From the UHGV virus genome UHGV-0052423: a DNA stretch of 37,021 nucleotides; one strand, given 5' to 3'. The stretch comes from a virus. Within the stretch, counting starts at the first letter, position 1; each line of letters begins with the position of its first letter. The notes below the pieces were generated by a model. That model did not search any database, had not been told where the DNA came from, and was given only the letters and a program-made list of their open reading frames with translations. Below, piece by piece: positions 7,027 to 36,343 of this stretch. The translations under genes were made by a program, and so were the position numbers.

Positions 7027-7423
7027 CCGGAAGAAGACATATCTCAGAGCGTACCGAAAACACGGAAAGAGGATCAAACGGATTGAATCAGAGATTGAAG
7101 AAATCAGAAACATGAAGATGTATCCTTCTTCAATCAATAACGGGATGCCACATGGATCCAATCAAAGTGATTTAAGTTCTTATGCGGTGGCTCTTCAGGA
7201 AAGAGAGGACGAGCTGTATCAAGAGGGAGTAAAGCAGGTACAGACATACAAAGATATAGAATACAGAATCAATAAGCTGGAGAATCAAGACGAAAGAGAT
7301 GTTATGTTCTACAAGTATATCAAAGGATTTACATGGTGGCAGATAGCACAGCTTATGGAGTACAGTGAGAGTTGGATCTACGAATTACACGGAAGAGCAC
7401 TGAAAAATATTCAAATCAATTAA
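6974..7423 (+). CDS. ArpU/RinA-like late transcriptional activator (sigma-70 region-4-like HTH)
   Basis: C-terminal 'DVMFYKYIKGFTWWQIAQLMEYSESWIYELHGRALKNI' resembles sigma region 4. Position immediately upstream of HNH-TerS-TerL is typical of ArpU-family activators in Firmicutes phages. Confidence 0.5.
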   Translation: MMPMEKRLEENNVKNENDRKKTYLRAYRKHGKRIKRIESEIEEIRNMKMYPSSINNGMPHGSNQSDLSSYAVALQEREDELYQEGVKQVQTYKDIEYRINKLENQDERDVMFYKYIKGFTWWQIAQLMEYSESWIYELHGRALKNIQIN

Positions 7424-7503
7424 AGAGTGGAGTCCACAGGAGTTCTAACTGTGCTAATCTGATATTGTCGAAAGACGGAAAGATACATACAAATTTCTTG
7501 AAA

Positions 7504-7540
7504 GAGACACTTGCAATCCTCTCGGCAGGTGTCTTTTTGT
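7504..7540 (+). terminator. stem-loop (agacac...gtgtct) followed by TTTTT
   Basis: Inverted repeat 7504-7509/7529-7534 plus T-run, between the activator and the HNH gene. Confidence 0.4.
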
Positions 7541-7556
7541 ATGAAGGGATGTAACT

Positions 7557-7889
7557 ATGACGGACAAGGAAGCAAAGAAATTTTACAATTCGACAATGTG
7601 GAAACATAAGCGGATGCAGATCCTAGAGAGAGACCACTATGAGTGCCAGGACTGTCGCAAACGATTGAGAGATGCAGTGGCAGCAGGCGACATCCTGCGA
7701 GGAGAAGAGAAAAAGATAAGGAGAGCCGAAGAAGTACATCACATTGTTGAGTTGAAGGAACATCCGGAACTCGGACTGGAAGAGGATAACCTAATCAGTC
7801 TTTGTGTGCCGTGTCATAACCTTAGACACGGCAGAGCACCAAGAAGATTCAAAAGAAAGAAGAAGCTTGTGAGCAAGGAGCTGTGGTAG
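7557..7889 (+). CDS. HNH endonuclease (terminase-associated)
   Basis: 'HYECQDCRK...EVHHIVELKEH...LISLCVPCHNLRHG' is a canonical HNH. It sits directly before the terminase genes. Confidence 0.8.
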   Translation: MTDKEAKKFYNSTMWKHKRMQILERDHYECQDCRKRLRDAVAAGDILRGEEKKIRRAEEVHHIVELKEHPELGLEEDNLISLCVPCHNLRHGRAPRRFKRKKKLVSKELW

Positions 7890-8091
7890 CCCCCGGTCAA
7901 TTCTCAGCGATTTTTCAAGAGTGAAGAACGGGGATGTAGCCAAGACTCTGAAGAAATTTTGAAATCTCGCGTGAAAAGGGCAGGGGGGTTAAATTTCAGG
8001 ACTCACTATAAGAAAGAAAATTTTCAGACAACTTCAAAAAGACTTAAAAAGAGCAGAAAAAGAAGTGAAAAATTGATAAAAATGGCATGAT

Positions 8092-18575: not shown

Positions 18576-20419
18576 TTCAGATTTATAATCCGGAAAATAC
18601 GGAATATGAACAGAACGGAAATATGACATTATTTCCGGAAGAAGCTACAATTCATGTGATCTTGAATGGAGAGTGGACGGCAACGATAGAGTATCCAATC
18701 GATCCGGAAGGACGTTGGAGGTATATCGTAGACAATGCGGTAATTAAGATGCCATCATTTAATGGGGAACAGCTTTTCCGTGTGATTAATAAAGAGAAAA
18801 AAGATTCAGGTGTAAGTGCAGATCTTATGCCTGTTTTTTTCGATGCAAAAGAGGATTGCTTCCTGTTGGACATCAGACCAACGGATAAGAATGGCCAGGA
18901 TGCTCTGGATCTGATGACAGCACCAAACCACAAATATCAGGCAAAATCAGATATTAAAACGTTATCGACTGCCTATTATCAGATGAAGAATCTGATAGAA
19001 GCGATTAATGGAAGTGATGAGAATTCTTTTGTTAATCGCTGGGGTGGAGAGATTCTATATGATAATTACAATGTTACGATTGATGAGAGAGTCGGCGGTG
19101 ATTATGGCGTAGAAGTGCTGTATGGAAAAAATATCGTGAAAGATGGATTTTCCGAAACGGTGGACATGAAGGATGTGGTCACGAGGATTGTTCCAAAATC
19201 GTACAATGGCTACATGATCGAAGGGGAGAACCCCTGGGTGGACTCTCCGTTGATCAGAAAATATCCGACAGTACGCTACGGCGTGATGACGTTTGAGGAT
19301 GTTAAGATGCGTGTGGATGCAGGAGAAGATGACGAAGAAAATGGAACGATTATCTGTGATACACAGGAACAGCTGGAAGAAGCCCTGAAAAAGAAATGCA
19401 GGGAACAGTTTGAGTTAGATGTGGACAAGCCAAAGGTGACAATCGAGGCAGATATGGAGCTTTTACAGAATACGGAATTGTATGAAGATGTGAAAGAACT
19501 GGAAAAGGTTTCACTTGGAGATACAGTTCACTGTAAACATTCAAAATTAGGAATCTTGTCGGATGCAAGAGTGATTGAACTGGAGTGGGATGCTGTGAGA
19601 AACAAGCTGACCTCCGTGACGCTGGGAGAATTCCAGTATAATTTCCTCGATGATGTGTCTTCTGTTATGAGTCGTGTTGACCAGGCAATCCGTTCCGATG
19701 GAACGCTGATCGGGCAGCAGGTTCAGGGAATCATCAATGGGGTAAAAGCACAGCTGAAAGCGCAGTCTACGATTGCGAAGAAACAGCCAGTCCGGGCGAT
19801 ATTGTTTGAAGATCTGGATTCAGAATCTCCGACCTATGGAGCAATGTGCCTGGGAACGCTCGGATTCGAGATTGCATCAGAACGTACAGCAGATGGAAGG
19901 GACTGGAAGTGGACTACCTTCGGAACTGGTCAGGGCTTTTATGCAGATTTTATTGTAGCTGGAACGATGCTGGCAGACAGAATCAAGGGAGGAACGCTGA
20001 TTCTTGGAGGAAAAGACAATGGAGATGGAACCGCAAAAGTACTCGATGCGAATGGCAATGTGGTTCTGGCTCTGACAAATCAGGGCATTGTTGTAGATCA
20101 TGCATCTAACGGCGGTGTGTTGATTAGTAACGGATCTATTTTTATAAGGAACACCAAGGGCGAGACAGTAGGAATTATGCACTATCAGGATAATGGTATG
20201 AGTATACAGTCTTACGGTGGACAATATGCAAGTATCCTGATTACGAATGAAGGGAAGATCTCAATCAATGCAGTAGGAGAAGTATCACTTTCCTGCGGAT
20301 CACTTAAGGTCGGCGGGAAGTCAACAAAGACAGGAAGAGCGGTATATTCAGACGGAACGTATCTGGATATCCAAAATGGACATGTTGTAGGTGGAAATAC
20401 GAAAGAAGGTAGTTTCTGA
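18572..20419 (+). CDS. tail-associated lysin / tail tip protein (Tal-like, prophage tail endopeptidase family)
   Basis: 615 aa following Dit. Confidence 0.55.
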   Translation: MIQIYNPENTEYEQNGNMTLFPEEATIHVILNGEWTATIEYPIDPEGRWRYIVDNAVIKMPSFNGEQLFRVINKEKKDSGVSADLMPVFFDAKEDCFLLDIRPTDKNGQDALDLMTAPNHKYQAKSDIKTLSTAYYQMKNLIEAINGSDENSFVNRWGGEILYDNYNVTIDERVGGDYGVEVLYGKNIVKDGFSETVDMKDVVTRIVPKSYNGYMIEGENPWVDSPLIRKYPTVRYGVMTFEDVKMRVDAGEDDEENGTIICDTQEQLEEALKKKCREQFELDVDKPKVTIEADMELLQNTELYEDVKELEKVSLGDTVHCKHSKLGILSDARVIELEWDAVRNKLTSVTLGEFQYNFLDDVSSVMSRVDQAIRSDGTLIGQQVQGIINGVKAQLKAQSTIAKKQPVRAILFEDLDSESPTYGAMCLGTLGFEIASERTADGRDWKWTTFGTGQGFYADFIVAGTMLADRIKGGTLILGGKDNGDGTAKVLDANGNVVLALTNQGIVVDHASNGGVLISNGSIFIRNTKGETVGIMHYQDNGMSIQSYGGQYASILITNEGKISINAVGEVSLSCGSLKVGGKSTKTGRAVYSDGTYLDIQNGHVVGGNTKEGSF

Positions 20420-21417
20420 TGAGCTGGACAATAAGCAACAATTATCTTTCGGAATCTCAGATGCAGGGCAACGCCCTTGAAGTGTATAAGTATTTCGCTG
20501 GAAAAGGCTGGACACTGAATGCAATCGGGGGCATCCTTGGAAATATGGAAAAGGAGTCCAACATTAACCCCGGACTCTGGCAGAGTCTGAATGAAGGAAA
20601 CTATAGCGGCGGCTTTGGACTGGTTCAATGGACACCGGCAACGAATTATACCGATTGGGCGAAATCCAATGGATATGCAATCACAGATCCGGTTGGACAG
20701 TTGCATTGGATTGATACTCTTTCAGCATCTTCCGGCCAATGGATAGCAACGAGTTCCTACAGTATGACATGGGCGCAGTTCAAGAGTAGCACAGAGACAC
20801 CAGAATATCTGGCCAGCGCTTTCCTTAAGAACTTTGAACGCGCGGGCGTTGAGGTAGAATCTGCAAGACGCAGTGCAGCAAGAAAATGGTATGAATATCT
20901 GAAAAAATACGCTACAGGAAGTCGGATTATAGAAAAGGCTGTTGAGTGGGCGGTGGCAATCGCAAAGGATGACAGTCACGGATACGATCAGGCACACAGG
21001 GATGGACCGGATTATGATTGTTCGTCTCTTCTTTGCTGGGCGTATTACAATGCGGGACTTAACACAAGACCAGGATATACACCGGCTACAGGAACGATGT
21101 ACAGTGTATTTCTTTCAGCAGGATTTGAAGATGTTACATCGCAGGTGAATCTGTCCACTGGATCTGGTCTGATAAGAGGAGATGTCCTGTTGAAACCAGG
21201 AAGCCATACAGAAATGTTCATAGGGAATGGACAGCTGGTAGGAGCTTCACAAAATGAATTAGGTGGAATCACAGGAGGACAGACCGGAGACCAGACGGGG
21301 GCTGAAATTCATGTACATGGTTACTATAACTTCCCGTGGCAGTATGTTCTCCGCTATCCGGGCGGGAACATTGCACCGGTGCAAGGCCTGTATATAGTCA
21401 AATGGATACCAGGATAG
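20419..21417 (+). CDS. bifunctional tail-associated peptidoglycan hydrolase (N-terminal phage tail-tip lysozyme-like domain + C-terminal NlpC/P60-CHAP-type Cys/His peptidase)
   Basis: N-term 'GWTLNAIGGILGNMEKESNINPGLWQS...GFGLVQWTP' is lysozyme-like; C-term 'DYDCSSLLCWAYYNAG...GSHTEMFIGNG' is a Cys-His peptidase. Confidence 0.65.
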   Translation: MSWTISNNYLSESQMQGNALEVYKYFAGKGWTLNAIGGILGNMEKESNINPGLWQSLNEGNYSGGFGLVQWTPATNYTDWAKSNGYAITDPVGQLHWIDTLSASSGQWIATSSYSMTWAQFKSSTETPEYLASAFLKNFERAGVEVESARRSAARKWYEYLKKYATGSRIIEKAVEWAVAIAKDDSHGYDQAHRDGPDYDCSSLLCWAYYNAGLNTRPGYTPATGTMYSVFLSAGFEDVTSQVNLSTGSGLIRGDVLLKPGSHTEMFIGNGQLVGASQNELGGITGGQTGDQTGAEIHVHGYYNFPWQYVLRYPGGNIAPVQGLYIVKWIPG

Positions 21418-21438
21418 AACAGAGGTGAAAGAAAGAGA

Positions 21439-22206
21439 ATGAATTATATTGAACGTAATGTATATGTGCTGGAAGACAGGATCAAGAGCCCAATTCATTA
21501 TGTAAGAGGTACGAATGCACTTCCCATCTATTTTCATTTCATGGATTATGAAATACCGGAAGATGCATCTGCAAAGGTTTTTATTCTGAAACCATCGAAG
21601 AAAGCAACATATAATGCGTGTCCGATCATTGAGAACACGGTACGTGTTATTGTAAAAGATCAGATGCTGGCAGAAACAGGAAGAAGTCTGCTTCAGTTAG
21701 AAATTACTAAAGGAGAGGACACTTTGGTAACTTTTGAGCAGCCGATAGAGGTCAAAAGAAATTTCGTGGAAGGTGATGTTCCGGAAAGCGAAAACGAGGC
21801 AGGATGGATTGATAAGTTTATCAAAGGAATGGAAGAAGCTACACAGCGGGCACAGGATGCAGCAAAGGGCGCAGAGCAGATAAAACAGACATTAGAGGAA
21901 AAGCTTCAGAATGGTGACTTCACAGGCCCAACGGGTGCGACAGGACCACAGGGAGAACAGGGGATTCCGGGCATACCAGGAAAAGACGGAGAGCAGGGGC
22001 CAAAAGGAGATACCGGTCCGGTTGGTCCAGTGGGACCACCAGGCAGAGATGCTAATGCTGCGATAACATCACTGGATCCGGGGATTTTTGCCATGTCGGT
22101 GGAAAGCGGTCACCTGTTACTTACCTATAATGGATCTGATCCAGCTCCGCCGTTGAAGATTGTAGAGGGCAGGTTGGTATATATACTGGATGAGGTGACA
22201 ACATGA
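21439..22206 (+). CDS. collagen-like (Gly-X-Y) tail fibre protein
   Basis: '[40 protein letters not shown]'; C-terminal GHL motif. Confidence 0.65.
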
Positions 22207-22841
22207 TTAGAGCGATGTTTGAAGAAAATGTGCGTAAGACAGAAGCACGTGGACTGGTACAGTGGGATTATGGACAGATACTGCAGATAGAGGGATTGAA
22301 AGGAATCGATCATGCAGAGGTTCATTTTGCTGTAAAAGAATGCAGTGCAAAAGCAGAGATCTGTATTGCAACTATAGAAGAAAACAGGATCCTTGCAGAT
22401 ATCCCGGACAAACTGCTGGAAGTTGGAAAAGACTTGATTGCATATGTGTATATTGCAGATGCGATGAGCGGGAAAACTGTCAGAATTATTGAACTTCCAG
22501 TTAAAAAGAGAGAACAGCCAGGAGATTATAGCACACCATCAGGCAAGAACCTTCTGCGTCAGGTACTGGAATCACTTGAAAAAAAGGCAGACAATATGAC
22601 TGTCATCGACGGAGAATTACAGTTACTGTCAGGTGATACACCTGTCGGAAACAGAGTCCGGATGGAGACGGCAGCAGGAAAAGAAATTGAAATTAGGAAT
22701 GATGGCACGTCGATCCAGTGGAGGTATACAGATCAGAATGAATGGAAAGAGCTGATTCCGCTGGCAGACCTGAAAGGGGAAGACGGGAAACCGCCGGAAT
22801 TTGAAATCAGGGAAGGTCATCTGATTGTAAAATATGAATAA
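22203..22841 (+). CDS. tail fibre-associated protein (shares the C-terminal 'F.I..GHLIV.Y' motif)
   Basis: C-terminus '[16 protein letters not shown]' parallels the ends of neighbouring fibre genes. Confidence 0.45.
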
Positions 22842-22921
22842 CTTACTGGATAGAGAGCACTTGTTACGACAGGTGCTTTTTATTATAAAAATTTTTCAAC
22901 AAAGAAAGGAAGGAAAGAAAC

Positions 22922-23827
22922 ATGGCAAGAGAGGTAGATTTAGGATCAATTATCGGACCACAGGGACCAAAAGGAGAAACAGGAGCAACAGGCCAACAGG
23001 GACCAACCGGACCGCAGGGTGAAACAGGCCCAACAGGTAAATCAGCCTATCAGGTATGGCTTGCGCAGTCAGGAAACGCAGGAAAGACAGAAGCACAGTA
23101 TATCCAGTCCATGAAAGGAGCTAAAGGAGACAAAGGAGATACAGGAGCGACAGGCCCACAGGGACCAACTGGAGCGACAGGAGCCACTGGAGCCACAGGT
23201 GCTACAGGTCCGCAGGGGGTGAAAGGCGATAAGGGAGACAAAGGAGATGCATTTGCGATTGCAAAGACATTCGCTTCCGTATCTGCAATGAATTCTGGCT
23301 TTTCAACGGACGGAGTGAAAGAAGGACAGTTCGTTATGATCGATACTGGAAATGTAAACGATGCAGATAACGCAAAGCTGTACGTGAAAGGAAAATCAGC
23401 CTATACATATATCACTGATTTGTCTGGTGCGACCGGTATGACAGGACCACAGGGACCGAAAGGCGATAAGGGAGCAACTGGAGATAAGGGAGCAACCGGA
23501 GCGACTGGAACAAGAGGAAGCCGCTGGAATGCAGGAACTGCAATCACCGGAACAAGTACAACGGCGACAATCTTTTCAGGAACAGGAATCACAGATGCAC
23601 TGGTGAATGATATGTATCTGAATACATCCACAGGCAATACGTATCGTTGTACTGTTGCAGGAGCAGCGGCAGCAGCTAAGTGGGTATACGTAGGAAGTTT
23701 AAAAGGAACAACCGGTGCACAGGGCGCAACTGGAGCGACAGGAGCCACCGGAGCAGCAGGCAAAGATGGAGAAACCCCAACATTTAAAATCCAGAACGGT
23801 CATTTAATTGCAGTATATGCAAACTAG
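22922..23827 (+). CDS. collagen-like tail fibre protein
   Basis: Multiple Gly-X-Y runs; ~70-aa module duplicated in the next gene; C-terminus '[17 protein letters not shown]'. Confidence 0.7.
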
Positions 23828-23838
23828 GAGGAGATACA

Positions 23839-24882
23839 ATGGCAACAAGACAGATTGATTTAGGACAGGTCGTAGGACCTACAGGAGCCACAGGAACAAG
23901 AGGAAGCCGTTGGACACAGGGAACGGCAATCACCGGAACAAGTACAACGGCGACAATCTTTTCCGGATCAGGAATCACAGACGCCATTGTAAATGATAAC
24001 TATCTGAACACATCAACAGGAAATACATACCGGTGTACAGTTGGCGGTGCTGCATCTGTAGCAAAATGGGTGTATACCGGAAACCTGAAAGGCCCACAGG
24101 GCGCAAAAGGCGCAACCGGACCGCAGGGACCAACCGGTGCGACTGGAGCGACCGGAGCAACCGGACCGAAAGGAGACACGGGACCAACTGGTCCCGCCGG
24201 TCCGCAAGGTCCGACAGGGACTGTAGATGCAAATACTCAGGTAGCATTTACAACGGCAAGTACAAGAGAAAATATCATAAGCAATGAGAAATTCGGGACG
24301 ATACTTGGAAAAATCGCAAAGTACTTTAAAGATCTCGGTACGTCTGCATTCCGATCAGTAGCCAATAACCTGACAACAGCATCAGCCGGAAGTACTGTTC
24401 TGGATGGATACCAGGGAAAGGTACTGGATGGAAAGAAACTGAATAATGCGAATGTGATCAATAATCTTCTTACAACAGAAGCAGGATATGCACTGGATGC
24501 AAGACAGGGAAAGGCACTTGAAGATGAGATTACTGAGTTAAATGGCAAATCATATGAGCTGATCAAAGTCAGCGATAACAGATATGTGAAGAAATACGCA
24601 GATGGACGCTTTGAAGCATATGGCCATGTAGCAATCAAGGATCTCGTATTTGCAAATCAGATTGGAACAAGCAGTGTCTATTACGCTCAATATCAGAATC
24701 TGAATATTGGGATTACTGCTAAAACCATTTCATCCGTACAACACACAGCGAATAACTCTGGTGTTGTATGGACTGGCAATGCATCTGTGTCGGGGATCGC
24801 CATGAAAGGGACTATCTTGCAATATGGTCCGACCTCCAGATCAACAGATTTTAATTATGATGTGAAGGGTACTTGGAAATAA
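23839..24882 (+). CDS. collagen-like tail fibre protein with exchangeable C-terminal receptor-binding tip (constant region 23839-24550 + cassette V1 24551-24882)
   Basis: Gly-X-Y repeats. A recombination-site copy (ttaaatggcaaat, 24538-24550, encoding LNGK) sits in frame at the constant/variable junction. The C-terminal tip carries '[14 protein letters not shown]', like side-tail-fibre tips. Confidence 0.7.
24538..24550 (+). repeat. shufflon crossover site 1 (core ttaaatggcaaat, forward)
   Basis: Exact 13-nt core shared with three other copies. Confidence 0.6.
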
Positions 24883-25254
24883 TTACTTCTTGGTATACCT
24901 CAGAGTAATACTTCCGGAATATGTGGACCAGTTTGCTCCGGTCGATACAATAACCGTTGCGCCGTTACTTGTAATCCTTACACCTATGGAATTTTCCACA
25001 GCTCTAGGATCCACATACGGAATTGGATAGCTTGCACCGGAATTGAATGCAAAACTATTTTCCATATCAACCCAGACATAATCAGCACCAGTAATACCTG
25101 TGCTTATAGATTTCATTGTATTATTCGGTAATGCTCCGGCAGATATCATTTTCTGATAGATGGGCTTTGAATTAAGGTACTGTCCTGTGAATGTTTCAGA
25201 AATTCCAAATCCTAAAGTAGTGGCATCCACCTTCTTCTCTAATTTGCCATTTAA
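24883..25254 (-). CDS. promoterless alternative tail-fibre C-terminal cassette V2 (reads LNGKLEKKVDATTLGFG...RYTKK* through site 2)
   Basis: Minus-strand frame open through the repeat. It abuts the fibre gene stop tail-to-tail with a 0-nt gap. No independent ATG. Confidence 0.55.
   Translation of the reverse strand, partial: LNGKLEKKVDATTLGFGISETFTGQYLNSKPIYQKMISAGALPNNTMKSISTGITGADYVWVDMENSFAFNSGASYPIPYVDPRAVENSIGVRITSNGATVIVSTGANWSTYSGSITLRYTKK
25242..25254 (-). repeat. shufflon crossover site 2 (core, reverse orientation)
   Basis: atttgccatttaa on the + strand. Confidence 0.6.
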
Positions 25255-25298
25255 CGCAGTTCCTTTTGTTATACTGAAAGCAAAAAGGAGCAGGAAGA

Positions 25299-26288
25299 AT
25301 GGAAAAGAAAATTATGGAGATCTTAAGGAGAATGCAGGGAGTTCTACAGGAAAAACAGCAGAAAGAGCTACAAAATGTTCTTATGATTGTTTTGGCAGGC
25401 TGTAAAATTGTGGAGGAAACATCGGTAAAGGCTGTCAGTAATGAATGGATGACAGATCTGCAAGACTTTCTGATGAGTAAGTCACTGGGCGGTAAGTCAC
25501 CTGAGACAGTAAAGCGGTATCAATACGAACTGCAACGGCTGTTATCTTATATTGATAAAGAAGTAGCACAGATTACTGCCGGAGATATCTCACAGTATAT
25601 GAGAGCCTATAAAGCAATTAGAAAAGTGTCAAACCAGACATTGAAAAATGTGAGGGCGGTATACAGCAGCTTCTTCGGTTGGCTACGGGATCGGAACAGA
25701 ATCCGATTAAATCCAATGATTATGGTGGAAGAGATTAAAGTTGAGACAATAATTAAGAAGCCTTTTTCGGATGAAGAACGAGAAAAATTGTTGAGAGAAT
25801 GCGATACGATTAGAGACAAGGCTATGGTGGAATTCTTGTATTCTACAGCGGTCAGGGTATCGGAATTATCAAGAATCAATCGTGAAGACGTTCAGTTTGC
25901 CAGCAGAGATCTGGTTGTATATGGAAAAGGCGGGAAAGAAAGGAGAGTGTACATCAATGAAAAGACGAACCTATACTTGAAAGAATATTTACAAGGACGG
26001 ACAGATACAGATCCGGCGCTGTTCGTATCGTTAAAGGGTGGTCATGAACGTCTGTCAAAGTCGGGGATCGAGGATATTATAAGAAGAATTGGAAAAAGAG
26101 CCAATGTGGAGAAGGCTCATCCTCATAGATTTCGGCGGACAGCATTGACCAATGCGTTGAATCGTGGAATGCCACTTCAAGAAGCAATGATTTTAGCGGG
26201 ACATTCCAAGCCGGAAACAACAATGAGGTATTGCACGGTGGATCAGGAAGCTGTTCAGTATCATCATAAAAAATATTTAAGCGCATAG
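25299..26288 (+). CDS. tyrosine site-specific recombinase (XerD/Rci-like; candidate shufflon invertase)
   Basis: RBS aaaaaggagcaggaagaATG. Catalytic signature ...VRVSEL (Arg), KGGKER (Lys), HPHRFRRT (H-x-x-R), LAGHSKPETTMRYC (His...Tyr). Confidence 0.85.
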   Translation: MEKKIMEILRRMQGVLQEKQQKELQNVLMIVLAGCKIVEETSVKAVSNEWMTDLQDFLMSKSLGGKSPETVKRYQYELQRLLSYIDKEVAQITAGDISQYMRAYKAIRKVSNQTLKNVRAVYSSFFGWLRDRNRIRLNPMIMVEEIKVETIIKKPFSDEEREKLLRECDTIRDKAMVEFLYSTAVRVSELSRINREDVQFASRDLVVYGKGGKERRVYINEKTNLYLKEYLQGRTDTDPALFVSLKGGHERLSKSGIEDIIRRIGKRANVEKAHPHRFRRTALTNALNRGMPLQEAMILAGHSKPETTMRYCTVDQEAVQYHHKKYLSA

Positions 26289-26372
26289 CAGTAAGAAAAA
26301 TAGAGATTGAAAAACGCTTGGCAATAGTCAGGTGTTATTTTTGTACAATTTTTTATTGAGAAGAAAAGAGGT

Positions 26373-26396
26373 GGAGTTCTTAATTAAATGGCAAAT
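26373..26396 (+). repeat. shufflon crossover site 3 (24-nt ggagttcttaattaaatggcaaat; core 26384-26396, forward)
   Basis: Perfect 24-nt inverted repeat with 27037-27060. Confidence 0.65.
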
Positions 26397-26701
26397 CAAT
26401 TATAGACATAAGTAAAAATCACTGTAAATTTGCAAATGGTTTGATTGTTCAATGGGGGACAGGATCGCTTCCAAGTTCATCGGAAGGTGGGGGAGGGTAT
26501 GCAACGATAACATTTCCTATACCATTTTCAGATACATCTTACACTGCTATTGCTTGCGCAAAATATCCTGGAACTGCAAACCCAGCGTTTATGGTATCTA
26601 CTGGTAACGCGAGTGCCTCAAAAATGTATGTATATGGACGAACCGGAAATTTAACAGCAATAACAAAAGCTGAATGTGGATGGATTGCTATAGGTTATTA
26701 A
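26384..26701 (+). CDS. alternative tail-fibre C-terminal cassette V3 (LNGKSIIDISKNHCKFANGLIVQWGTGS...IGY*)
   Basis: Frame opens at the site with a TAA immediately upstream. It contains the 'GLIVQWG' motif, which I recall from side-tail-fibre tips. Confidence 0.55.
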   Translation, partial: LNGKSIIDISKNHCKFANGLIVQWGTGSLPSSSEGGGGYATITFPIPFSDTSYTAIACAKYPGTANPAFMVSTGNASASKMYVYGRTGNLTAITKAECGWIAIGY

Positions 26702-26704
26702 TTT

Positions 26705-27049
26705 CTACAAATCATAGGACACATCTAACCATATATAGGTATCTTTCTGAAATGAAGAGTTAATCTGATAAGTTATAGCACCATTCGTTTCTATGATTAC
26801 ACATCCGATGCCTATAAGTGTCCAATTATCTTTCGTTACAATTGCAGGAAATGCTTCGCCGTTAGGCGGTGCTATTTCAGCCGGAATTGATCCACCGTTA
26901 TATTGAGTATTGGCATTTCCCATGCCAGTTGTATATAACCCAGCCATAATAGAAACTCGATTATTCTTTTTCGCGATACGCTGGTCTCTTATAGCAAGCG
27001 ATCCTCCTTGTGATATGCTATACTTCTTTTCTTCTAATTTGCCATTTAA
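26705..27049 (-). CDS. alternative tail-fibre C-terminal cassette V4 (LNGKLEEKKYSISQGG...VSYDL*)
   Basis: Minus-strand frame open from site 4; a TAA precedes it; tail-to-tail with V3, 3-nt gap. Confidence 0.55.
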   Translation of the reverse strand, partial: LNGKLEEKKYSISQGGSLAIRDQRIAKKNNRVSIMAGLYTTGMGNANTQYNGGSIPAEIAPPNGEAFPAIVTKDNWTLIGIGCVIIETNGAITYQINSSFQKDTYIWLDVSYDL

Positions 27050-27060
27050 TTAAGAACTCC
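27037..27060 (-). repeat. shufflon crossover site 4 (core 27037-27049, reverse orientation)
   Basis: Reverse complement equals site 3 over 24 nt. Confidence 0.65.
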
Positions 27061-27075
27061 ACAGAAGGGAGAAAT

Positions 27076-27759
27076 ATGAACATTCTTTTTTTAGATCAGA
27101 AAGATCCGGTTATCGGAAATGTAACAGTGCAGGATCCACATCATGTATTGATTGAGAATACAGAAAAGAATCTGTCCGGTTTTCATCTTGTGACAGATGA
27201 AGGAAATGTATATGGAAAATACGATAACTTTACAACTCTTTACAGAGAACAGGGGGAAGGATATATCTTGTCCGATGATGGCAGTGTATATGTAGAGCCA
27301 GAACCTGAACCAGAGCCAGAACCGTATGTGCCAACACTGGAAGAAGTGCAGGAAGAAAAGGTCAGTGAAATGAACACTGCACAGCAGAGCGTGATTGCTG
27401 AGGGTGTAAACGTAACACTTACGGATGGAAGTGTAGAGCATTTCACATTAACTGAACATGATCAGACAAGCCTTGTAGGATTACAGGGACAGGTGGCAGC
27501 AGGAGAAGAAAATATTCCGTGGCATACATCAGATGAGGAAGAACACTGTAAGTTTTACAGTAATGCAGATATGGCACGAATCACGACCACGGCAATGTCT
27601 CACGTTACATGGCATGTAACTTACTTCAGAGATTTGAGAATTTACATTAGATCACTGGAAGACAAAGAAGAAGTTGAAAAAGTCACTTATGGAATGGATA
27701 TTCCTGTAGAATATCAGTCTGAGCCGTTAAAAGCGATGATCGCGGCTCAGTCTGTATGA
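27076..27759 (+). CDS. hypothetical protein with (EP)5 linker; possible tail-fibre assembly/chaperone-like protein
   Basis: RBS cagaagggagaaatATG; 'EPEPEPEPEP' linker; lies immediately downstream of the fibre cassettes. Confidence 0.45.
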   Translation: MNILFLDQKDPVIGNVTVQDPHHVLIENTEKNLSGFHLVTDEGNVYGKYDNFTTLYREQGEGYILSDDGSVYVEPEPEPEPEPYVPTLEEVQEEKVSEMNTAQQSVIAEGVNVTLTDGSVEHFTLTEHDQTSLVGLQGQVAAGEENIPWHTSDEEEHCKFYSNADMARITTTAMSHVTWHVTYFRDLRIYIRSLEDKEEVEKVTYGMDIPVEYQSEPLKAMIAAQSV

Positions 27760-28166
27760 GATGGCTAAGACCGCTGATTCTGTTTGGAATTGGCGGTTTT
27801 CTGTATGTGCTGATTGAACTTTTCACAAGAGGACGAAGTCACTGGTCCATGTTTCTGGTTGGAGGGATGGCGTTTTATCTGATCGGATGTATTAATGAGT
27901 ATACACGAAGAGATCTTGCAATGCGCTGGCAGATGGCAGCAGGAGCTATCATCATAACGTTATTGGAACTGATTGCCGGGATTATTGTGAATATCATATT
28001 AGGATGGAATGTGTGGGATTATAGTAATTTGCCTGGAAACTTATTAGGGCAGATTTGTCCACAGTTTACAGTATTATGGTTTCTCCTTTCAGCGGTAGCG
28101 GTGTACCTGGATGATTGGATCAGATGGTTATTGTGGGGAGAAGAGAGACCAAAATATAAATTTTAA
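27756..28166 (+). CDS. 4-TM membrane protein (DUF1113 / putative ABC-transporter-type-IV-like family)
   Basis: Hydrophobic segments; ATGA overlap with the preceding gene; start of the lysis region. Confidence 0.45.
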   Translation: MRWLRPLILFGIGGFLYVLIELFTRGRSHWSMFLVGGMAFYLIGCINEYTRRDLAMRWQMAAGAIIITLLELIAGIIVNIILGWNVWDYSNLPGNLLGQICPQFTVLWFLLSAVAVYLDDWIRWLLWGEERPKYKF

Positions 28167-28179
28167 AGAAAGAAGTATG

Positions 28180-28440
28180 GCTATGGAAACAATTATTTCA
28201 GCCTGCATCTCAGCAGGCGTAACGCTAGTGATTTGTCTACTGAACAATCACGGACAGCAGGAAAAGACAAGAGCTCTTATGGAATACAAGTTGGATGAGC
28301 TGACAAAAAGAGTAGATAAGCACAACAATGTAGTTGAGCGAACATACAGTATTGAAAAGAGACTTTCTGTTCAGGAGGAACAGATCAGAGTAGCAAACCA
28401 TAGAATTAGTGATTTGGAGGGAATTGAACATGAACATTGA
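28180..28440 (+). CDS. lysis-associated small membrane protein (N-terminal TM + coiled coil; XhlA-like by position)
   Basis: 'METIISACISAGVTLVICLL' TM then a heptad-rich region; precedes the holin. Confidence 0.4.
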   Translation, partial: AMETIISACISAGVTLVICLLNNHGQQEKTRALMEYKLDELTKRVDKHNNVVERTYSIEKRLSVQEEQIRVANHRISDLEGIEHEH

Positions 28441-28753
28441 AACATTAATGCAGTACATGAGTTACATTTTGGCAGGAATCGGAGTGCTGGCTTTCTTGGT
28501 CAGCGTGATCGTGCAGACAATCAAGGAGATGCCGGCACTGAAGAAGGTACAGACGAATGTTGTGGCACTGATTACATCTCTGATCCTGACACCAGTAGCA
28601 GTAATCGTCTTGTGTACTTATTATCAGATAGTAATTGAGTGGTATTACATTTTTGCATCATTCATTGCTGCATTCATCGTCTATTTAGTGAGTACTGGTG
28701 GCTGGGAGAGAGTGACAGAGATGTGGAACAGAAACGCATATAAGAAAAAGTAG
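28430..28753 (+). CDS. holin
   Basis: 107 aa; RBS ggaggg before ATG 28430; 3 hydrophobic helices and a charged C-terminus (KKK); directly upstream of the endolysin. Confidence 0.55.
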   Translation: MNIETLMQYMSYILAGIGVLAFLVSVIVQTIKEMPALKKVQTNVVALITSLILTPVAVIVLCTYYQIVIEWYYIFASFIAAFIVYLVSTGGWERVTEMWNRNAYKKK

Positions 28754-28783
28754 AATTGCACCAGTGCAAGAAAGGAGAATATT

Positions 28784-28960
28784 ATGACAGAACAGACGGT
28801 AAAAGAAATTATTAAGAGTTTCGCCTACGGACTTTCAGCAAAGGAAATCTCTGATAACGAAGGGACTTCACTGGAAACTATGGAGAAATTTGCAGAGGAA
28901 CACGCAGCGGAGATTGAGCAGAAGAAAGCAGAACTGAAAGAAGGTGGATGGTATGAGTAA
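28784..28960 (+). CDS. small acidic 58-aa ORF (MTEQTVKEIIKSFAYGLSAKEISDNEG...GGWYE), not in the supplied track
   Basis: Good RBS aaaggagaatattATG; in-frame to TAA 28958-28960. Confidence 0.3.
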   Translation: MTEQTVKEIIKSFAYGLSAKEISDNEGTSLETMEKFAEEHAAEIEQKKAELKEGGWYE

Positions 28961-30023
28961 TCTGATTATTGACGTATCTTATCATAATGGAGTTATCAAC
29001 TGGGAAAGAGTCAAGGCGTCAGGTTGTGCCGGAGCTATTCTTAGATGTGGTTACGGAGACGATATCGCATCACAGGATGATAAACAGTGGATCCGCAACC
29101 TTGCAGAGTGCGAAAGACTTGGAATCCCGGTAGGAGTCTATCTGTACAGCTACGCAACTTGTGACAGACAGGCACAGAGCGAGCTTGCTCACATTTTAAG
29201 ACTGATTAAAGGTCATACCTTCCAGTTACCTATCTTCATTGATGTTGAGGAACCAGGCACACAGGGATACGCACCTAAATGCTGTGAGATTGTCTGCGAA
29301 GGACTTAAAGCAGCTGGATATACTCCGGGAATCTACGCGTCACTGAGTTGGTTCAACAACTATCTCGGCAATGTACGTGGAAAATATGTTGAGTGGATGG
29401 CAAGATACAAGAATCTTCCGGAGGATACTTACAATGGTCAGTATGCGATTTGGCAGTATTCTTCTGATGGACAGGTAGATGGAGTTAGTGGAAGAGTTGA
29501 TGTCAACCATTGCTATATTGAGTTTGGAGGAAGCGTTCAGCCTGTCACACCTTCTGTCAAGCCAGCACCAGCTGAAAAGAAAGATTTAGGACAGGTCGAT
29601 ATCACATATCAGGCTTTCACAGATAAGTGGTGGCCGGCAGTAACAAACAAAGCGGACTGGGCTGGCAAAAGTGATGATGTTCCAATCAAGTGGCTTGCCA
29701 TCAAGGTAAGCAAGGGAAGTATCCGGGCGCGTGTCTATACACAGGCTAACGGATGGCTTCCATATCTGACATTCGGCAACAGCTATGATCTAAACGACAA
29801 GAAGAATGGAATCCTCGGAGACGGTTCAGAGATTCTCGCAGTTGAACTGTACTACATTACACCGGAAGGATATGAGTACCAGATGGTTCACTATAGAGTT
29901 TCTGTCCGGAATAACAAGAACTTCTACGCAGATCAGGTCGATACACTGAAAGCAAGTGGCATGGACGGATTTGCCGGAGATAAGAAGAGATTCATTGACA
30001 AGTTCCAGGCTTGGGTTGAATAA
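28953..30023 (+). CDS. endolysin: GH25 muramidase catalytic domain + C-terminal cell-wall-binding domain
   Basis: 'IIDVSYHNGVINWERVKASGCAGAILRCGYG...GVYLYSYA' is a GH25 signature; RBS aaggtgg before ATG 28953. Confidence 0.8.
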   Translation: MSNLIIDVSYHNGVINWERVKASGCAGAILRCGYGDDIASQDDKQWIRNLAECERLGIPVGVYLYSYATCDRQAQSELAHILRLIKGHTFQLPIFIDVEEPGTQGYAPKCCEIVCEGLKAAGYTPGIYASLSWFNNYLGNVRGKYVEWMARYKNLPEDTYNGQYAIWQYSSDGQVDGVSGRVDVNHCYIEFGGSVQPVTPSVKPAPAEKKDLGQVDITYQAFTDKWWPAVTNKADWAGKSDDVPIKWLAIKVSKGSIRARVYTQANGWLPYLTFGNSYDLNDKKNGILGDGSEILAVELYYITPEGYEYQMVHYRVSVRNNKNFYADQVDTLKASGMDGFAGDKKRFIDKFQAWVE

Positions 30024-30274: not shown

Positions 30275-31825
30275 TTATTTGCGCGGAATTCTGGGCTTTA
30301 TGGTCAATTCAAAGTTAGGCTCATTCAGATGACCGCGCTTATTTTTCGTTAATTTCTTGTATTCTATAGATTCTATGAGTAATTTCAACAATCTGTTGCG
30401 TTCCGGAATAGATAAATCCCAATAACAGGAAAGCAGATCTTCACAAGCTGGCAGGAACTGTTCTATATTGGCTTCTCTTTGGCGTTCCTTGTCAAGTTCG
30501 AGTTTCAGCTGGGCAACGTTTGATTCAGCTTCAGAAATTCGGTTTTGTAAACTGTCAGATCGCTCAAGAAAGACTTCTGTCGAGTAGACACCTTGTTCAA
30601 GCAGATCATACATGGTTCCCTTTTGCCGTAGAAGTTGATCGAGTGTCTGTTGAGCTGATTCCAAAAGAACTTCTTTTTCCGGAATAAGACTCTTGCTTGG
30701 CATCTGACCACTCAGACGATATCCTTCAACCCAGTCAGAAAGCGCGTTATAAACTTCTCGTTCAACAAGATCCAAAGGGCTGCCAATGGTAGGACAATCA
30801 TATGTACTGCACAACATCAGATCATAAGGAACACGACTTGCAGTTCCGGAAGGCGGCCGGCGAATCATTTTCTTTTTGCACTCACTACAGACAATGATTC
30901 CGGCAAGCGGATTTTTGATAATGTTAGAACCGGCAGGCTTTGGGGATCCACAGCCAAGATAACTCTGAGCTTCTGCAAATACATCGTGATCGATTAAGCG
31001 CGGATGCCGACCGGAAACAATGGTATAGTCACTGGTTCTCGGACGTGTGGTTGTGAGAACACCATTTTCAACCGTTCTGACCACTTTTCGTTCGCCGATC
31101 TTAACGCATTGATCGTATACAACATTAGAGAGGATTCCACGGACTGTGCTCTCACTCCAAAGTTTGGAATTACGCGGCTTTGTACCGTAACTGTTTAAAG
31201 TACGAGTGATCGACCGGATACCGACACGTTCCGGACCGGTAAACATAGAAAAGATAAGCCGCACAACAGGAGCCTCGTTTTCATCAAAAGCAAGAGTCCA
31301 TCCCTTCTCTTTTTCAAGTTTCGTTCTCCGGAAACCGTATGGTGCGGAGTTATATGGCCACTTTCCCTCAGAGATAGCGGCATAACGCCCATTCTGCATC
31401 CTGCGCTTGATTGTCTTATATTCACGCCGACTCATGAATAATCCAAACTCAAAATACTCTTCATCGAATTCATTGGCCGGATCATAGGTTTTGGAAGGAG
31501 TGATGATTAGTGTGTTGGAATACTGGAAAGCTCTCTGTACAACTCCCTGATCGATCGTATCGCCACGAGCAAGACGTTCCACTTCCATAACAAGCACACC
31601 GTCCCAAAGGTTTTGCTCTACCTCGTGAAGTAACTGTTGCATAACAGGACGTGCAGCTATAGTTTCTCCAGACACAACTTCTCGATAAATATTGCTAATA
31701 ATAAGGTTGTTTTTCTTAGCAAGAGAGAGAAGTGCACGTTCGTGTCTGGCAAGAGTTTCCCCTTCACCATGCTGCTCGGCTTCAAGATCCTTTCTCGATT
31801 TCCTTAAATAAATACAATATGACAT
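30275..31825 (-). CDS. int: large serine recombinase (phage integrase)
   Basis: N-terminal resolvase domain ('IYLRKSRKD...VLVMEVERLARG'), recombinase domain, zinc ribbon (CSECKKK), C-terminal coiled coil. RBS ggaggtg before ATG at 31825. Confidence 0.85.
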   Translation of the reverse strand: MSYCIYLRKSRKDLEAEQHGEGETLARHERALLSLAKKNNLIISNIYREVVSGETIAARPVMQQLLHEVEQNLWDGVLVMEVERLARGDTIDQGVVQRAFQYSNTLIITPSKTYDPANEFDEEYFEFGLFMSRREYKTIKRRMQNGRYAAISEGKWPYNSAPYGFRRTKLEKEKGWTLAFDENEAPVVRLIFSMFTGPERVGIRSITRTLNSYGTKPRNSKLWSESTVRGILSNVVYDQCVKIGERKVVRTVENGVLTTTRPRTSDYTIVSGRHPRLIDHDVFAEAQSYLGCGSPKPAGSNIIKNPLAGIIVCSECKKKMIRRPPSGTASRVPYDLMLCSTYDCPTIGSPLDLVEREVYNALSDWVEGYRLSGQMPSKSLIPEKEVLLESAQQTLDQLLRQKGTMYDLLEQGVYSTEVFLERSDSLQNRISEAESNVAQLKLELDKERQREANIEQFLPACEDLLSCYWDLSIPERNRLLKLLIESIEYKKLTKNKRGHLNEPNFELTIKPRIPRK

Positions 31826-31879
31826 GATATCACCTCCGTATATATTATGTAAAAAAGTACAAAAATAACAGTCATACAT

Positions 31880-35581: not shown

Positions 35582-36343
35582 ATGGCAACGAAGAGAGTAA
35601 CACACACCTTCCGGAAAGGAGACATCCTGGAGGTGAAGGAATACCATGATGGCAGGTATGGAGCAAGGGGACTGCCAAGAGAAAAGAAGAGAAAGCCTAC
35701 ACCGGAGCAGATGGCAGTAGTGAATGCTATGAATAAGGCAGAGACAGCCAGACACAGATTGTTGGAGTACTTTGGAAAGGGGGACTACTTCCTGACGTTG
35801 ACGTACAGAGTCGAGGCAAGACCTCCGGACATGGCGAAAGCAAAGAAGGATTTCACGAATCTGATAAGCAAGCTAAGGACAAGATACAAGAAAGAACAGA
35901 TCGAATTGCGCTGGATCCGGAACATTGAGAAAGGGACCAAGGGAGCATGGCACGTTCACATGGTAATCACAGGATGCCGGGATACGATCCGCTGGGTAGA
36001 GGAATGTTGGCCACACGGTGGAATCTATGCAGAACAACTGGAGAAAAGCAAATACTACGAAGAGGATTTCTCACAGCTCGCATCCTACATCACCAAAAAC
36101 GAGAAGGTGGGAGAAAAGAGGGAGGATGGAAAGAGGGACAAGCCAAGACTCAGCGAATCCAGTTACAGCACTTCGCGGAACATGCCGCTGAAACCACCAA
36201 AGAAGAAAAAACTGGCAAGATGGCCAAAAGAGATCAAACAAAAGAACGGCTATTACATTGCCAAGAGCTATGAAGGAATCAATCCGGCCACTGGGTTCAA
36301 GTACCGGAGATACACATTGATCCGGTTGAACAGGAGGATTTGA
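35582..36343 (+). CDS. HUH-superfamily rolling-circle replication initiator (Rep)
   Basis: Motif I 'FLTLTY', motif II 'WHVHMVI' (HUH), motif III 'YITKNEK' (YxxK) in canonical order; RBS agaggt. Confidence 0.65.
   Translation: MATKRVTHTFRKGDILEVKEYHDGRYGARGLPREKKRKPTPEQMAVVNAMNKAETARHRLLEYFGKGDYFLTLTYRVEARPPDMAKAKKDFTNLISKLRTRYKKEQIELRWIRNIEKGTKGAWHVHMVITGCRDTIRWVEECWPHGGIYAEQLEKSKYYEEDFSQLASYITKNEKVGEKREDGKRDKPRLSESSYSTSRNMPLKPPKKKKLARWPKEIKQKNGYYIAKSYEGINPATGFKYRRYTLIRLNRRI

Follow-up and report, generated by a model that had tools for sequence, protein, structure and literature searches.

The viral genome UHGV-0052423 (37,021 nucleotides (nt); this whole stretch is referred to as the window) carries a tail-fibre locus in which a fibre gene, four alternative tip cassettes and a gene for a tyrosine recombinase are interspersed with four copies of a 13 base pair (bp) core. 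The recombinase gene lies between two pairs of tail-to-tail cassettes, and the fibre gene is fused to one of the four tips. The locus is very probably an active shufflon-type multiple-inversion system that swaps the C-termini of a tail fibre in a temperate siphovirus of gut Firmicutes, with the recombinase as its proposed driver. This reading keeps the substance of a first-pass annotation, made from the letters of the window, and revises it in several respects.

Organisation of the fibre locus

The window contains exactly four copies of the core, TTAAATGGCAAAT, in the order +, −, +, −: site 1 (24538–24550, +) lies inside the fibre gene, site 2 (25242–25254, −) and site 4 (27037–27049, −) are inverted exact copies, and site 3 (26384–26396, +) is again an exact forward copy. 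The first-pass annotation had the same four positions with alternating orientation. No exact copy was found in any of 100 dinucleotide-preserving shuffles, and approximately none is expected by chance. Sites 3 and 4 form the inner ends of the two arms of a perfect inverted repeat (26371–26396 and 27037–27062), which is 26 bp long and not 24 bp as first stated. Sites 1 and 2 lie in a 19-nt inverted repeat (95% identity), and a conserved CTGAG directly precedes site 1 (24533–24537). Translation confirmed that L-N-G-K is read in the same codon phase at all four cores, each of which opens an intact cassette.

The constant N-terminal part of the fibre (Rc; 23839–24537, +; 233 amino acids (aa)) is collagen-like and ends ...EDEITE just before the core. 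The whole fibre open reading frame (ORF), 23839–24882, matches Pfam Collagen and Phage_fiber_rpt, in agreement with the earlier placing of site 1 inside a collagen-like fibre gene. Tip V1 (24551–24882 including the stop codon, +; 114 aa counted with LNGK, as for the other tips) is expressed in the window configuration. The remaining three tips are silent: V2 (24883–25241, −; 123 aa), V3 (26397–26701, +; 105 aa) and V4 (26705–27036, −; 114 aa). The two pairs are arranged tail to tail with the gaps originally described, 0 nt between V1 and V2 and 3 nt between V3 and V4. The two cassettes said to have a stop codon immediately upstream of the core are V3 and V4; V2 is preceded by an Ala codon.

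V3 matches the tail-fibre tip family Gp53-like_C (Pfam, 1e-13), which supports the likeness of its GLIVQWG motif to side-tail-fibre tips that the first-pass annotation noted. V1, V2 and V4 gave no significant Pfam or PHROG match. The predicted structural model of V2 suggests a likeness to fibre tips and lectins; a Foldseek search of this model against the PDB gave no match at an expectation value (E) ≤ 0.001, and a search for V2 homologues returned mostly annotated copies of the silent cassette itself and a few distant relatives.

The middle, or recombinase, segment (25255–26383, +; 1129 bp) holds a possible extended −10 element, the recombinase coding sequence and a terminator-like hairpin. 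The coding sequence (25299–26288, +; 329 aa) matches Pfam Phage_integrase (3e-35) and a SAM-like N-domain (SAM_4), and alignment with XerD shows a complete R-K-H-R-H-Y catalytic set (R186, K213, H276, R279, H302 and Y311), so the tyrosine recombinase assigned to this segment stands. The protein consists of the SAM-like core-binding and catalytic domains only and is therefore armless. Its closest solved structures in the PDB are those of archaeal XerA and Escherichia coli XerD. The NCBIfam scores for XerA (214.3, cut-off 220), XerC (155.8, cut-off 335) and XerD (132.4, cut-off 330) are below the curated equivalog cut-offs, so the protein is not placed in the Xer dimer-resolution class (XerC/D/A/S), and none of the NCBIfam invertase models matched it with a meaningful score. 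Judged from these comparisons, it is an armless Xer-like tyrosine recombinase.

Integration does not require this enzyme, as a large serine recombinase is encoded separately, next to the lysis genes. This second protein (30275–31879, −; 534 aa), encoded after the lysis genes, contains Resolvase, Recombinase and Zn ribbon domains and is presumably the true integrase; its presence answers the concern, raised in the first-pass annotation, that the tyrosine recombinase might be an ordinary integrase. In every locus examined the tyrosine recombinase gene is within the tail-fibre locus and not at a prophage end.

Upstream of the recombinase gene a possible extended −10 element, TGtTATACT (25267–25275, +), can be read. 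A promoter scan gave hits no more often than in shuffled sequence, so the proposed promoter rests on reading by eye. The terminator-like hairpin (26313–26336, +), followed by ATTTTTGT, comes directly after the recombinase gene and shares its strand with the fibre-associated and lysis genes further downstream. Beyond site 4 lies a constant gene (27076–27759, +; 227 aa) with a match to Pfam DUF4376 (1e-6) and to phrog_1348, which is annotated as tail fibre in PHROGs. It is outside the invertible DNA and is 100% identical across loci with different cassette arrangements, and its product may be a shared fibre-assembly or fibre-associated protein.

Alternative arrangements in public loci

Loci were fetched with the recombinase protein from IMG/VR (17), long bacterial contigs with the identical protein (10), metagenomes (26) and one reference genome. 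Cores were mapped, followed by translation from each core, and about 40 public loci with the same or a related recombinase were compared. All four sites are present in about 30 of them, in the order Rc, site, cassette pair, site, recombinase, site, cassette pair, site. A locus lacking the recombinase and one pair was not seen among these loci, which were found through the recombinase itself.

With the identical recombinase, six arrangements of the V1–V4 set were observed (given as slot 1/slot 2): V1V2/V3V4 in the window, V1V2/V4V3 in L025 and L027, V2V1/V3V4 in L022, V2V1/V4.. in L005, V4V3/V1V2 in L006 and V3V4/V2V1 in L029. These are six of the eight arrangements possible with the recombinase in forward orientation, and the F5/F6 and F5/F9 cassette pairs show analogous series. 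V1 occurs in both slots and in both orientations among the other loci. Rc is 99.7–100% identical among prophages with different tips behind it, and in different loci the reading frame of the same Rc continues into V1, V2, V3, V4 or a fifth tip, F6. V3 is joined to Rc in three loci (L029, L042 and L044) and to other shafts in four (L007, L008, L033 and L043); V4 follows Rc in L006 and a related shaft in L036. The prediction that inversion would join the constant fibre to each of the four tips is thus borne out in near-identical prophages, and the idea of a closed set of four tips is not, as the same backbone also carries the F5/F6 and F5/F9 pairs.

Non-cassette DNA amounting to 3328 bp (Rc, the recombinase segment and a further 1.5 kb downstream) was compared between the backbones of these loci. 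Slot 2 is flipped between the window and L027, whose backbones differ at two positions; L022 and L025, and likewise L004 and L023, differ at one position and both slots are flipped. L021/L028 and L002 differ at two positions and have their pairs in exchanged slots. The alternative orientations that the first-pass annotation proposed to look for are therefore present in public assemblies, between samples and with breakpoints in the core.

The cassettes fall into 25 families when clustered at 80% identity and range from 83 to 143 aa. F6 and F11 match the same Pfam family as V3, F14 has a weak match to an H-type lectin and F5 a weak match to the BclA C-terminal (C1q-like) domain. An intact ORF from LNGK to the stop codon is found in about 134 of about 142 cassette copies, silent ones included, with exceptions in L010, L024, L026, L029 and L032. 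Broken or short cassettes in one slot were noted in L024 (3178–3956), L026 (3194–3956), L029 (from 5086) and L032 (from 1142), and comprise pieces of V2 (45 and 63 aa), stubs 13 and 27 aa long and an F5 reduced to 9 aa. The break in L024 may be a frameshift error, the name of the record hinting at a long-read assembler; otherwise the broken copies may be decaying.

Three of the loci (L024, L027 and L030) have record names that hint at long-read assemblers, and differing arrangements occur on contigs of 224–793 kb. Assembly artefact is not credible as a general explanation of the arrangements, because the repeats are shorter than assembly k-mers and because contigs with such names are among those that show them. 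Some contigs (L001, L032 and L038) end exactly at a core, which hints that the assembly graph branches there and would fit mixed populations. L001, which ends in this way, has the V1/V2 pair in both slots (7086–7802). This is either a genuine duplication, produced by unequal exchange at sites 1 and 3, which are direct repeats, or a chimera assembled from a mixed population. The ends of L031 and L034 and the start of L033 consist of sequencing-adapter sequence (CTGTCTCTTATACACATCTCCGAGCCCACGAGAC; GCTCTTCCGATCT), and those contig ends are therefore technical. L040 and L046, which come from one assembly, were considered as two arrangements in one sample and proved to be different phages, 70% identical.

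The recombination site

In all four positions the left flank of the core is fixed and the cassette side varies between loci, which places the crossover inside the core. Base 13 of the core goes with the cassette (F5 carries A there), so exchange takes place within the first 12 bases. The left flanks of the four positions read, in order, ...ACTGAG, ...ACTGCG, ...GTGGAGTTCTTAA and ...GTGGAGTTCTTAA; sites 1 and 2 have ACTGnG in common, and sites 3 and 4 share 13 bp of flank. Each of 39 distinct left flanks, non-coding ones included, has C at −5, and 38 of them have T at −4. Since these positions are invariant or nearly so, the conserved functional site appears to be about 17–18 bp long, CTnAnTTAAATGGCAAA, and asymmetric, being conserved on one side only. 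Neither a dyad nor binding arms nor a spacer could be identified in the site.

Related phages carry variants of the core (TTAAATGGCAAAA, TTAAATGGTAAAA, TTAAATAGCAAWT, TTAATTGGCAAWA and TTAATTAGCAAAT), and within one genome all four copies carry the same variant. In L014, for example, T is at position 9 in all four copies (TTAAATGGTAAAA) and in L011 and L013 the base is C (TTAAATGGCAAAA), and these phages have cassettes in common. The core is thus conserved in related phages, on which the first-pass annotation had made its reading depend, and in addition co-varies with the phage that carries it.

Proposed mechanism and orientation of the recombinase segment

The locus combines at least three sites in both orientations, in-frame promoterless 3′ cassettes, a dedicated recombinase and alternative arrangements, seen between samples, with breakpoints at the sites; these are the features by which a shufflon is defined. 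In the mechanism that we propose, the recombinase would act on the four asymmetric sites of about 17 bp (CTnAnTTAAATGGCAAA), which delimit two invertible segments flanking the recombinase, each with two tail-to-tail tips. The core of the site would double as the L-N-G-K codons at the junction of shaft and tip, such that inversion between opposed sites would set another promoterless cassette (83–143 aa) in frame behind the shaft. The enzyme would act in the prophage, possibly from its own promoter (the TGtTATACT element). A lysogen population would then be mixed and would release virions with different fibre tips, and the tip would determine the receptor and hence the host range. From the comparison of loci we infer that the recombinase catalyses the rearrangements, that arrangements switch within one lysogen population and that host range depends on the tips, in the sense of the 'programmable host range' suggested previously.

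Several points weigh against this mechanism. The alternative arrangements are evidence from between samples and not from within one sample or clone, and the connection between the recombinase and the rearrangements is drawn from sequence comparison. The hairpin after the recombinase gene would, as a terminator, separate the late promoter from the fibre-associated and lysis genes further downstream, which the mechanism does not account for. Finally, the recombinase segment is bounded by sites 2 and 3, which are mutually inverted, and should therefore flip; it is inverted in one of the 36 loci (window included) that hold both Rc and the recombinase gene and is forward relative to Rc in the other 35.

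Enumeration of the inversions between oppositely oriented sites gives 16 reachable arrangements, in all of which the recombinase stays in the middle and in eight of which it is inverted, and a pair that moves between slots by inversions alone must pass through recombinase-inverted states. A simple model in which any pair of inverted sites recombines does not predict the bias in orientation. On this point the first-pass annotation, which had any inversion between opposed sites change the tip, is corrected. The sole inverted case, L044, reads Rc::V3-V4′-rec(−). Its contig, assembled from short reads at 5.9x, may instead be chimeric and join two arrangements of one sample by way of the 640-bp V3V4 pair.

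The rarity of the inverted segment means that the four site pairs differ in how often they are used or retained. Possible causes are an effect of the left flanks on the usage of site pairs (ACTGnG at sites 1 and 2, 13 bp at sites 3 and 4), selection against the inverted state, and movement of pairs between slots by another route, either excision with subsequent re-insertion or exchange between direct sites on different molecules.

Cassette exchange between phages and alternative explanations

Identical or closely similar cassettes are found in phages that differ elsewhere. A 770-bp F5/F9 pair is 100.0% identical in L004 and L007, the identity starting and stopping exactly at two cores, while the flanks of the pair cannot be aligned and the recombinase segments are 75.5% identical. 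The V3/V4 pair of the window is about 95% identical in L007, L008 and L009, the adjacent flanks being 57–77% identical. In L007 and L043 the same cassettes and core are attached to an unrelated non-collagen shaft of 268 aa, and the window and L021, with a single difference in the 3328-bp backbone, carry V3/V4 and F5/F6, respectively. Cassette pairs are thus passed between phages, their boundaries lying at the sites, and the recombinase would be the agent of this movement.

Both non-collagen loci were noted for a further feature. The expressed fibre of L007 (4803–5609) has a non-collagen N-terminus, as does that of L043, and in both loci the left flank of site 4 (in L007 in the region 7434–7964, −, with the site at 7853) reads ...YNETE-LNGK, resembling the end of a shaft, without a shaft gene at that place. 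This flank is probably a fossil of an earlier exchange with a flank of the site 1 type.

These observations allow a broader proposal, that the sites form an integron-like exchange platform for receptor-binding modules among Lachnospiraceae phages, together with an undescribed control on the recombination of site pairs or the persistence of arrangements. The control is proposed because the recombinase-inverted state is nearly absent. We regard the proposal, which is built on comparisons of assembled loci, as plausible although somewhat less likely to be true than not to be.

The same data could be taken further, to mean that the recombinase mainly captures and exchanges cassettes between phages in the manner of an integron, within-genome inversion being a by-product. 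The identity of the F5/F9 pair up to two cores, the similarity of V3/V4 between diverged flanks, the replacement of V3/V4 by F5/F6 on one backbone and the sharing of cassettes with an unrelated shaft would all be expected of such an enzyme. Capture is, however, compatible with inversion, and flips of both slots between backbones one base apart show that intramolecular inversion is frequent. Alternating sites and tail-to-tail pairs are needed by an inversion switch and not by a capture platform. Exchange of cassettes could equally result from ordinary homologous recombination, with breakpoints constrained by the conserved core. Capture as the main function is therefore an unlikely reading, and the inversion switch driven by the recombinase is preferred.

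Rearrangement by the host, through homologous or microhomology recombination at the short repeats, would leave the Xer-like protein another role such as the resolution of phage genome dimers. It would accord with the best scores of the protein, which are against Xer models. Repeats of 13–26 bp are nevertheless very short for RecA-type recombination. The recombinase gene is always between the sites across 71–100% protein identity and the core co-varies with it, and flank positions −5 and −4 are invariant even where non-coding, as a protein-binding site would be. Host recombination is accordingly a very improbable source of the arrangements. A static locus, with cassettes that are fossils of fibre genes and arrangements that are assembly artefacts at repeats, would fit the contigs that end exactly at cores (L001, L032 and L038) and those that are possibly chimeric (L001 and L044) and can be practically dismissed, given repeats below the usual assembly k-mer length, internally consistent four-site layouts on contigs of 224–793 kb, some with long-read-type names (L024, L027 and L030), and silent cassettes that are nearly all intact.

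The phage and its host

The window is the genome of a temperate siphovirus. It encodes a terminase, portal, protease, capsid, major tail protein, tape measure, Dit and Prophage_tail protein, as well as three collagen-like proteins and a GH25 lysin; no sheath gene is found among its tail genes. The nearest cultured relatives of the large terminase are all Firmicutes phages, with Erysipelothrix phage SE-1 the closest (46%). These relatives and the set of tail genes support the label 'Firmicutes siphophage' given in the first-pass annotation. The sole match in a named genome is a relative of the recombinase (71%) in a metagenome-assembled genome of Candidatus Mediterraneibacter excrementavium, which has its own 31-nt inverted repeat around a cassette pair. 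Within the human-gut Firmicutes, the host is probably a member of the Lachnospiraceae. A megablast search of window positions 20000–30000 against GenBank phages gave no match.

Public assemblies contain the exact recombinase protein in 2720 blocks, on bacterial contigs that reach 0.2–1 Mb, and the phage of the window is therefore a very common, integrated gut prophage. In other prophage loci the gene after the lysin is different, a 127-aa ORF in L022 and L025–L028 and a 142-aa gene with a Mn-catalase match in L029; for this reason the window may represent the excised or circular phage, or a copy with different boundaries.

Three collagen-like genes lie in a row (21439–22206, 22922–23827 and 23839–24537). 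The C-terminal region of about 70 aa of the 301-aa collagen-like protein recurs near the N-terminus of the switchable fibre. The gene upstream of the switchable fibre has a called length of 114 to 316 aa across otherwise near-identical prophages, suggesting either expansion and contraction of collagen repeats or collapse in assembly. The early region encodes a PcfJ-like protein (262–2385; 707 aa) and a REP_ORF2/G2P-type replication protein (35582–36343), which are unrelated to the switch.

More distant relatives of the recombinase were also found. A related Xer-like gene (29–35%) is present in Terrisporobacter phage TPELB_ph1 (L019, 17645–18640) and Clostridium phage phiCp-D (L020, 21639–22616), in both of which it is annotated 'integrase', follows the last tail gene and precedes the holin; a second, larger integrase is encoded by TPELB_ph1 as well. 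Neither TPELB_ph1 nor the C. perfringens phage phiCp-D could be accepted as a shufflon, there being no convincing inverted repeats around the Xer-like gene. A set of distant IMG/VR relatives (L015–L017) is 35–41% identical, and the two that were scanned, L015 and L017, gave no clear set of sites. Among the tblastn hits of the recombinase at E ≤ 1e-20 there was no Bifidobacterium phage.

Implications

The fibre tip of one of the more prevalent gut prophage lineages would be variable by design, and virome typing or host prediction based on a single assembly would register just one tip out of several. A site of about 17 bp, a 329-aa enzyme and about two dozen interchangeable tips could be used to study and engineer host range in phages of the Lachnospiraceae, which are hard to culture. 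Two mechanistic questions can be tested, namely the exchange of cassettes between phages at the sites and the strong tendency of the recombinase segment to be in forward orientation. If the exchange platform is real, the roughly two dozen cassette families in about 40 loci would constitute a horizontal pool of receptor-binding modules, and phages with different shafts, and with recombinases about 75% identical at the DNA level, would be keeping the same site of about 17 bp.

Comparison with known systems

Fibre switching by inversion is classically the work of serine invertases, which depend on a Fis-dependent enhancer: Gin acts on the G segment of phage Mu, Cin in P1, Pin in e14 and Min in p15B. 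As in the window, inversion in these systems swaps the C-terminal part of a tail fibre; the serine systems change the host range, and p15B Min is a multiple-inversion system. The Mu and P1 switches differ from that of the window in using a serine invertase and not a tyrosine recombinase, the only serine recombinase of the window being the 534-aa integrase type, far from the locus. Moreover, each invertible half in Mu and P1 has its own assembly gene (U/U′), whereas the cassettes of the window are single tips and the sole chaperone-like gene (DUF4376) is constant and outside the invertible DNA. The serine-invertase fibre switches are summarised in PMC6109161.

The closest counterpart is the Rin shufflon of Bifidobacterium breve and B. 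longum prophages, described by Mavrich et al. in 2018 as the first phage-encoded invertase of the tyrosine family (PMC6109161). It combines a constant gene (Rc) and Rv cassettes with rix sites of 11 bp and an armless XerD-like enzyme that is not the phage integrase (PMC6109161), and a Rin-type shufflon was later reported in Eggerthella lenta prophages in 2022 (PMC8778435). Rin and the window system both have a phage-encoded armless Xer-like tyrosine recombinase that is separate from the integrase and acts on a receptor-binding or fibre gene, a constant N-terminal gene followed by promoterless C-terminal cassettes, and a short asymmetric crossover site. Inversions were deduced from differences between prophages in both, and for Rin were also seen in induced virions. 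The sites differ, rix being TTCCCTAACCC (11 bp) and the core of the window TTAAATGGCAAAT. The rin gene is at one end of the cassette array, whereas the recombinase gene of the window is between two tail-to-tail pairs on a segment bounded by inverted sites. The hosts of Rin are Actinobacteria and that of the window belongs to the Firmicutes; the shaft in the window is collagen-like.

An active multi-cassette tail-fibre shufflon has also been described in BV01-like phages of Phocaeicola vulgatus (2026 preprint, PMC13596623). Like the window system, it is located at the distal end of the fibre gene, adjoins a recombinase gene and varies in configuration between samples. Its 10-bp directional motif with extensions, TGGGAGAACT, is unlike that of the window, its three cassettes yield six isoforms through different stop positions, its host belongs to the Bacteroidota and the class of its recombinase is unstated. 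All of its configurations have read-level evidence, whereas the window system is known from comparison between samples. The novelty first claimed for a tyrosine-recombinase fibre shufflon thus gives way to precedents (PMC6109161 and PMC8778435), and a fibre shufflon as such to a third (PMC13596623). A Roseburia phage Shimadzu paper was considered as a further precedent and set aside, as it concerns a diversity-generating retroelement and cro inversion and not a fibre shufflon. The full-text literature searched, in whose coverage most subscription-journal papers are not included, gave no report of such a shufflon in a Firmicutes phage.

An embedded invertase gene is known from another setting, the hsdS 'epigenetic invertons' of Type I restriction-modification systems, for example S. 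pneumoniae PsrA/CreX, where the tyrosine invertase gene is often within the inverton (PMC7672463). These invertons resemble the window system in the position of the invertase gene between the alternatives, in their occurrence in Firmicutes and in having in-frame inverted repeats inside coding sequence. Their target differs, being a restriction specificity subunit and not a virion protein.

The R64/IncI plasmid shufflon is driven by the tyrosine recombinase Rci, which acts at 19-bp sfx sites on pilV and whose gene, rci, is at the end of the array. Rci is reported to perform inversion only. The plasmid system has in common with the window a tyrosine recombinase, multiple sites conserved on one side and present in both orientations, and a constant N-terminus with swappable C-termini; its target is the tip adhesin of a conjugative pilus on a plasmid. 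The R64/IncI shufflon is also cited in PMC9881135.

Tyrosine-recombinase fibre shufflons in prophages of Actinobacteria, and a fibre shufflon of unstated recombinase class in phages of Bacteroidota, are therefore already known, and the locus of the window adds the gut Firmicutes to the cases in the searchable literature. It differs from these in its Firmicutes host, in the position of the recombinase between two tail-to-tail pairs, in a pool of tips shared between phages and in a recombinase segment that is rarely inverted.

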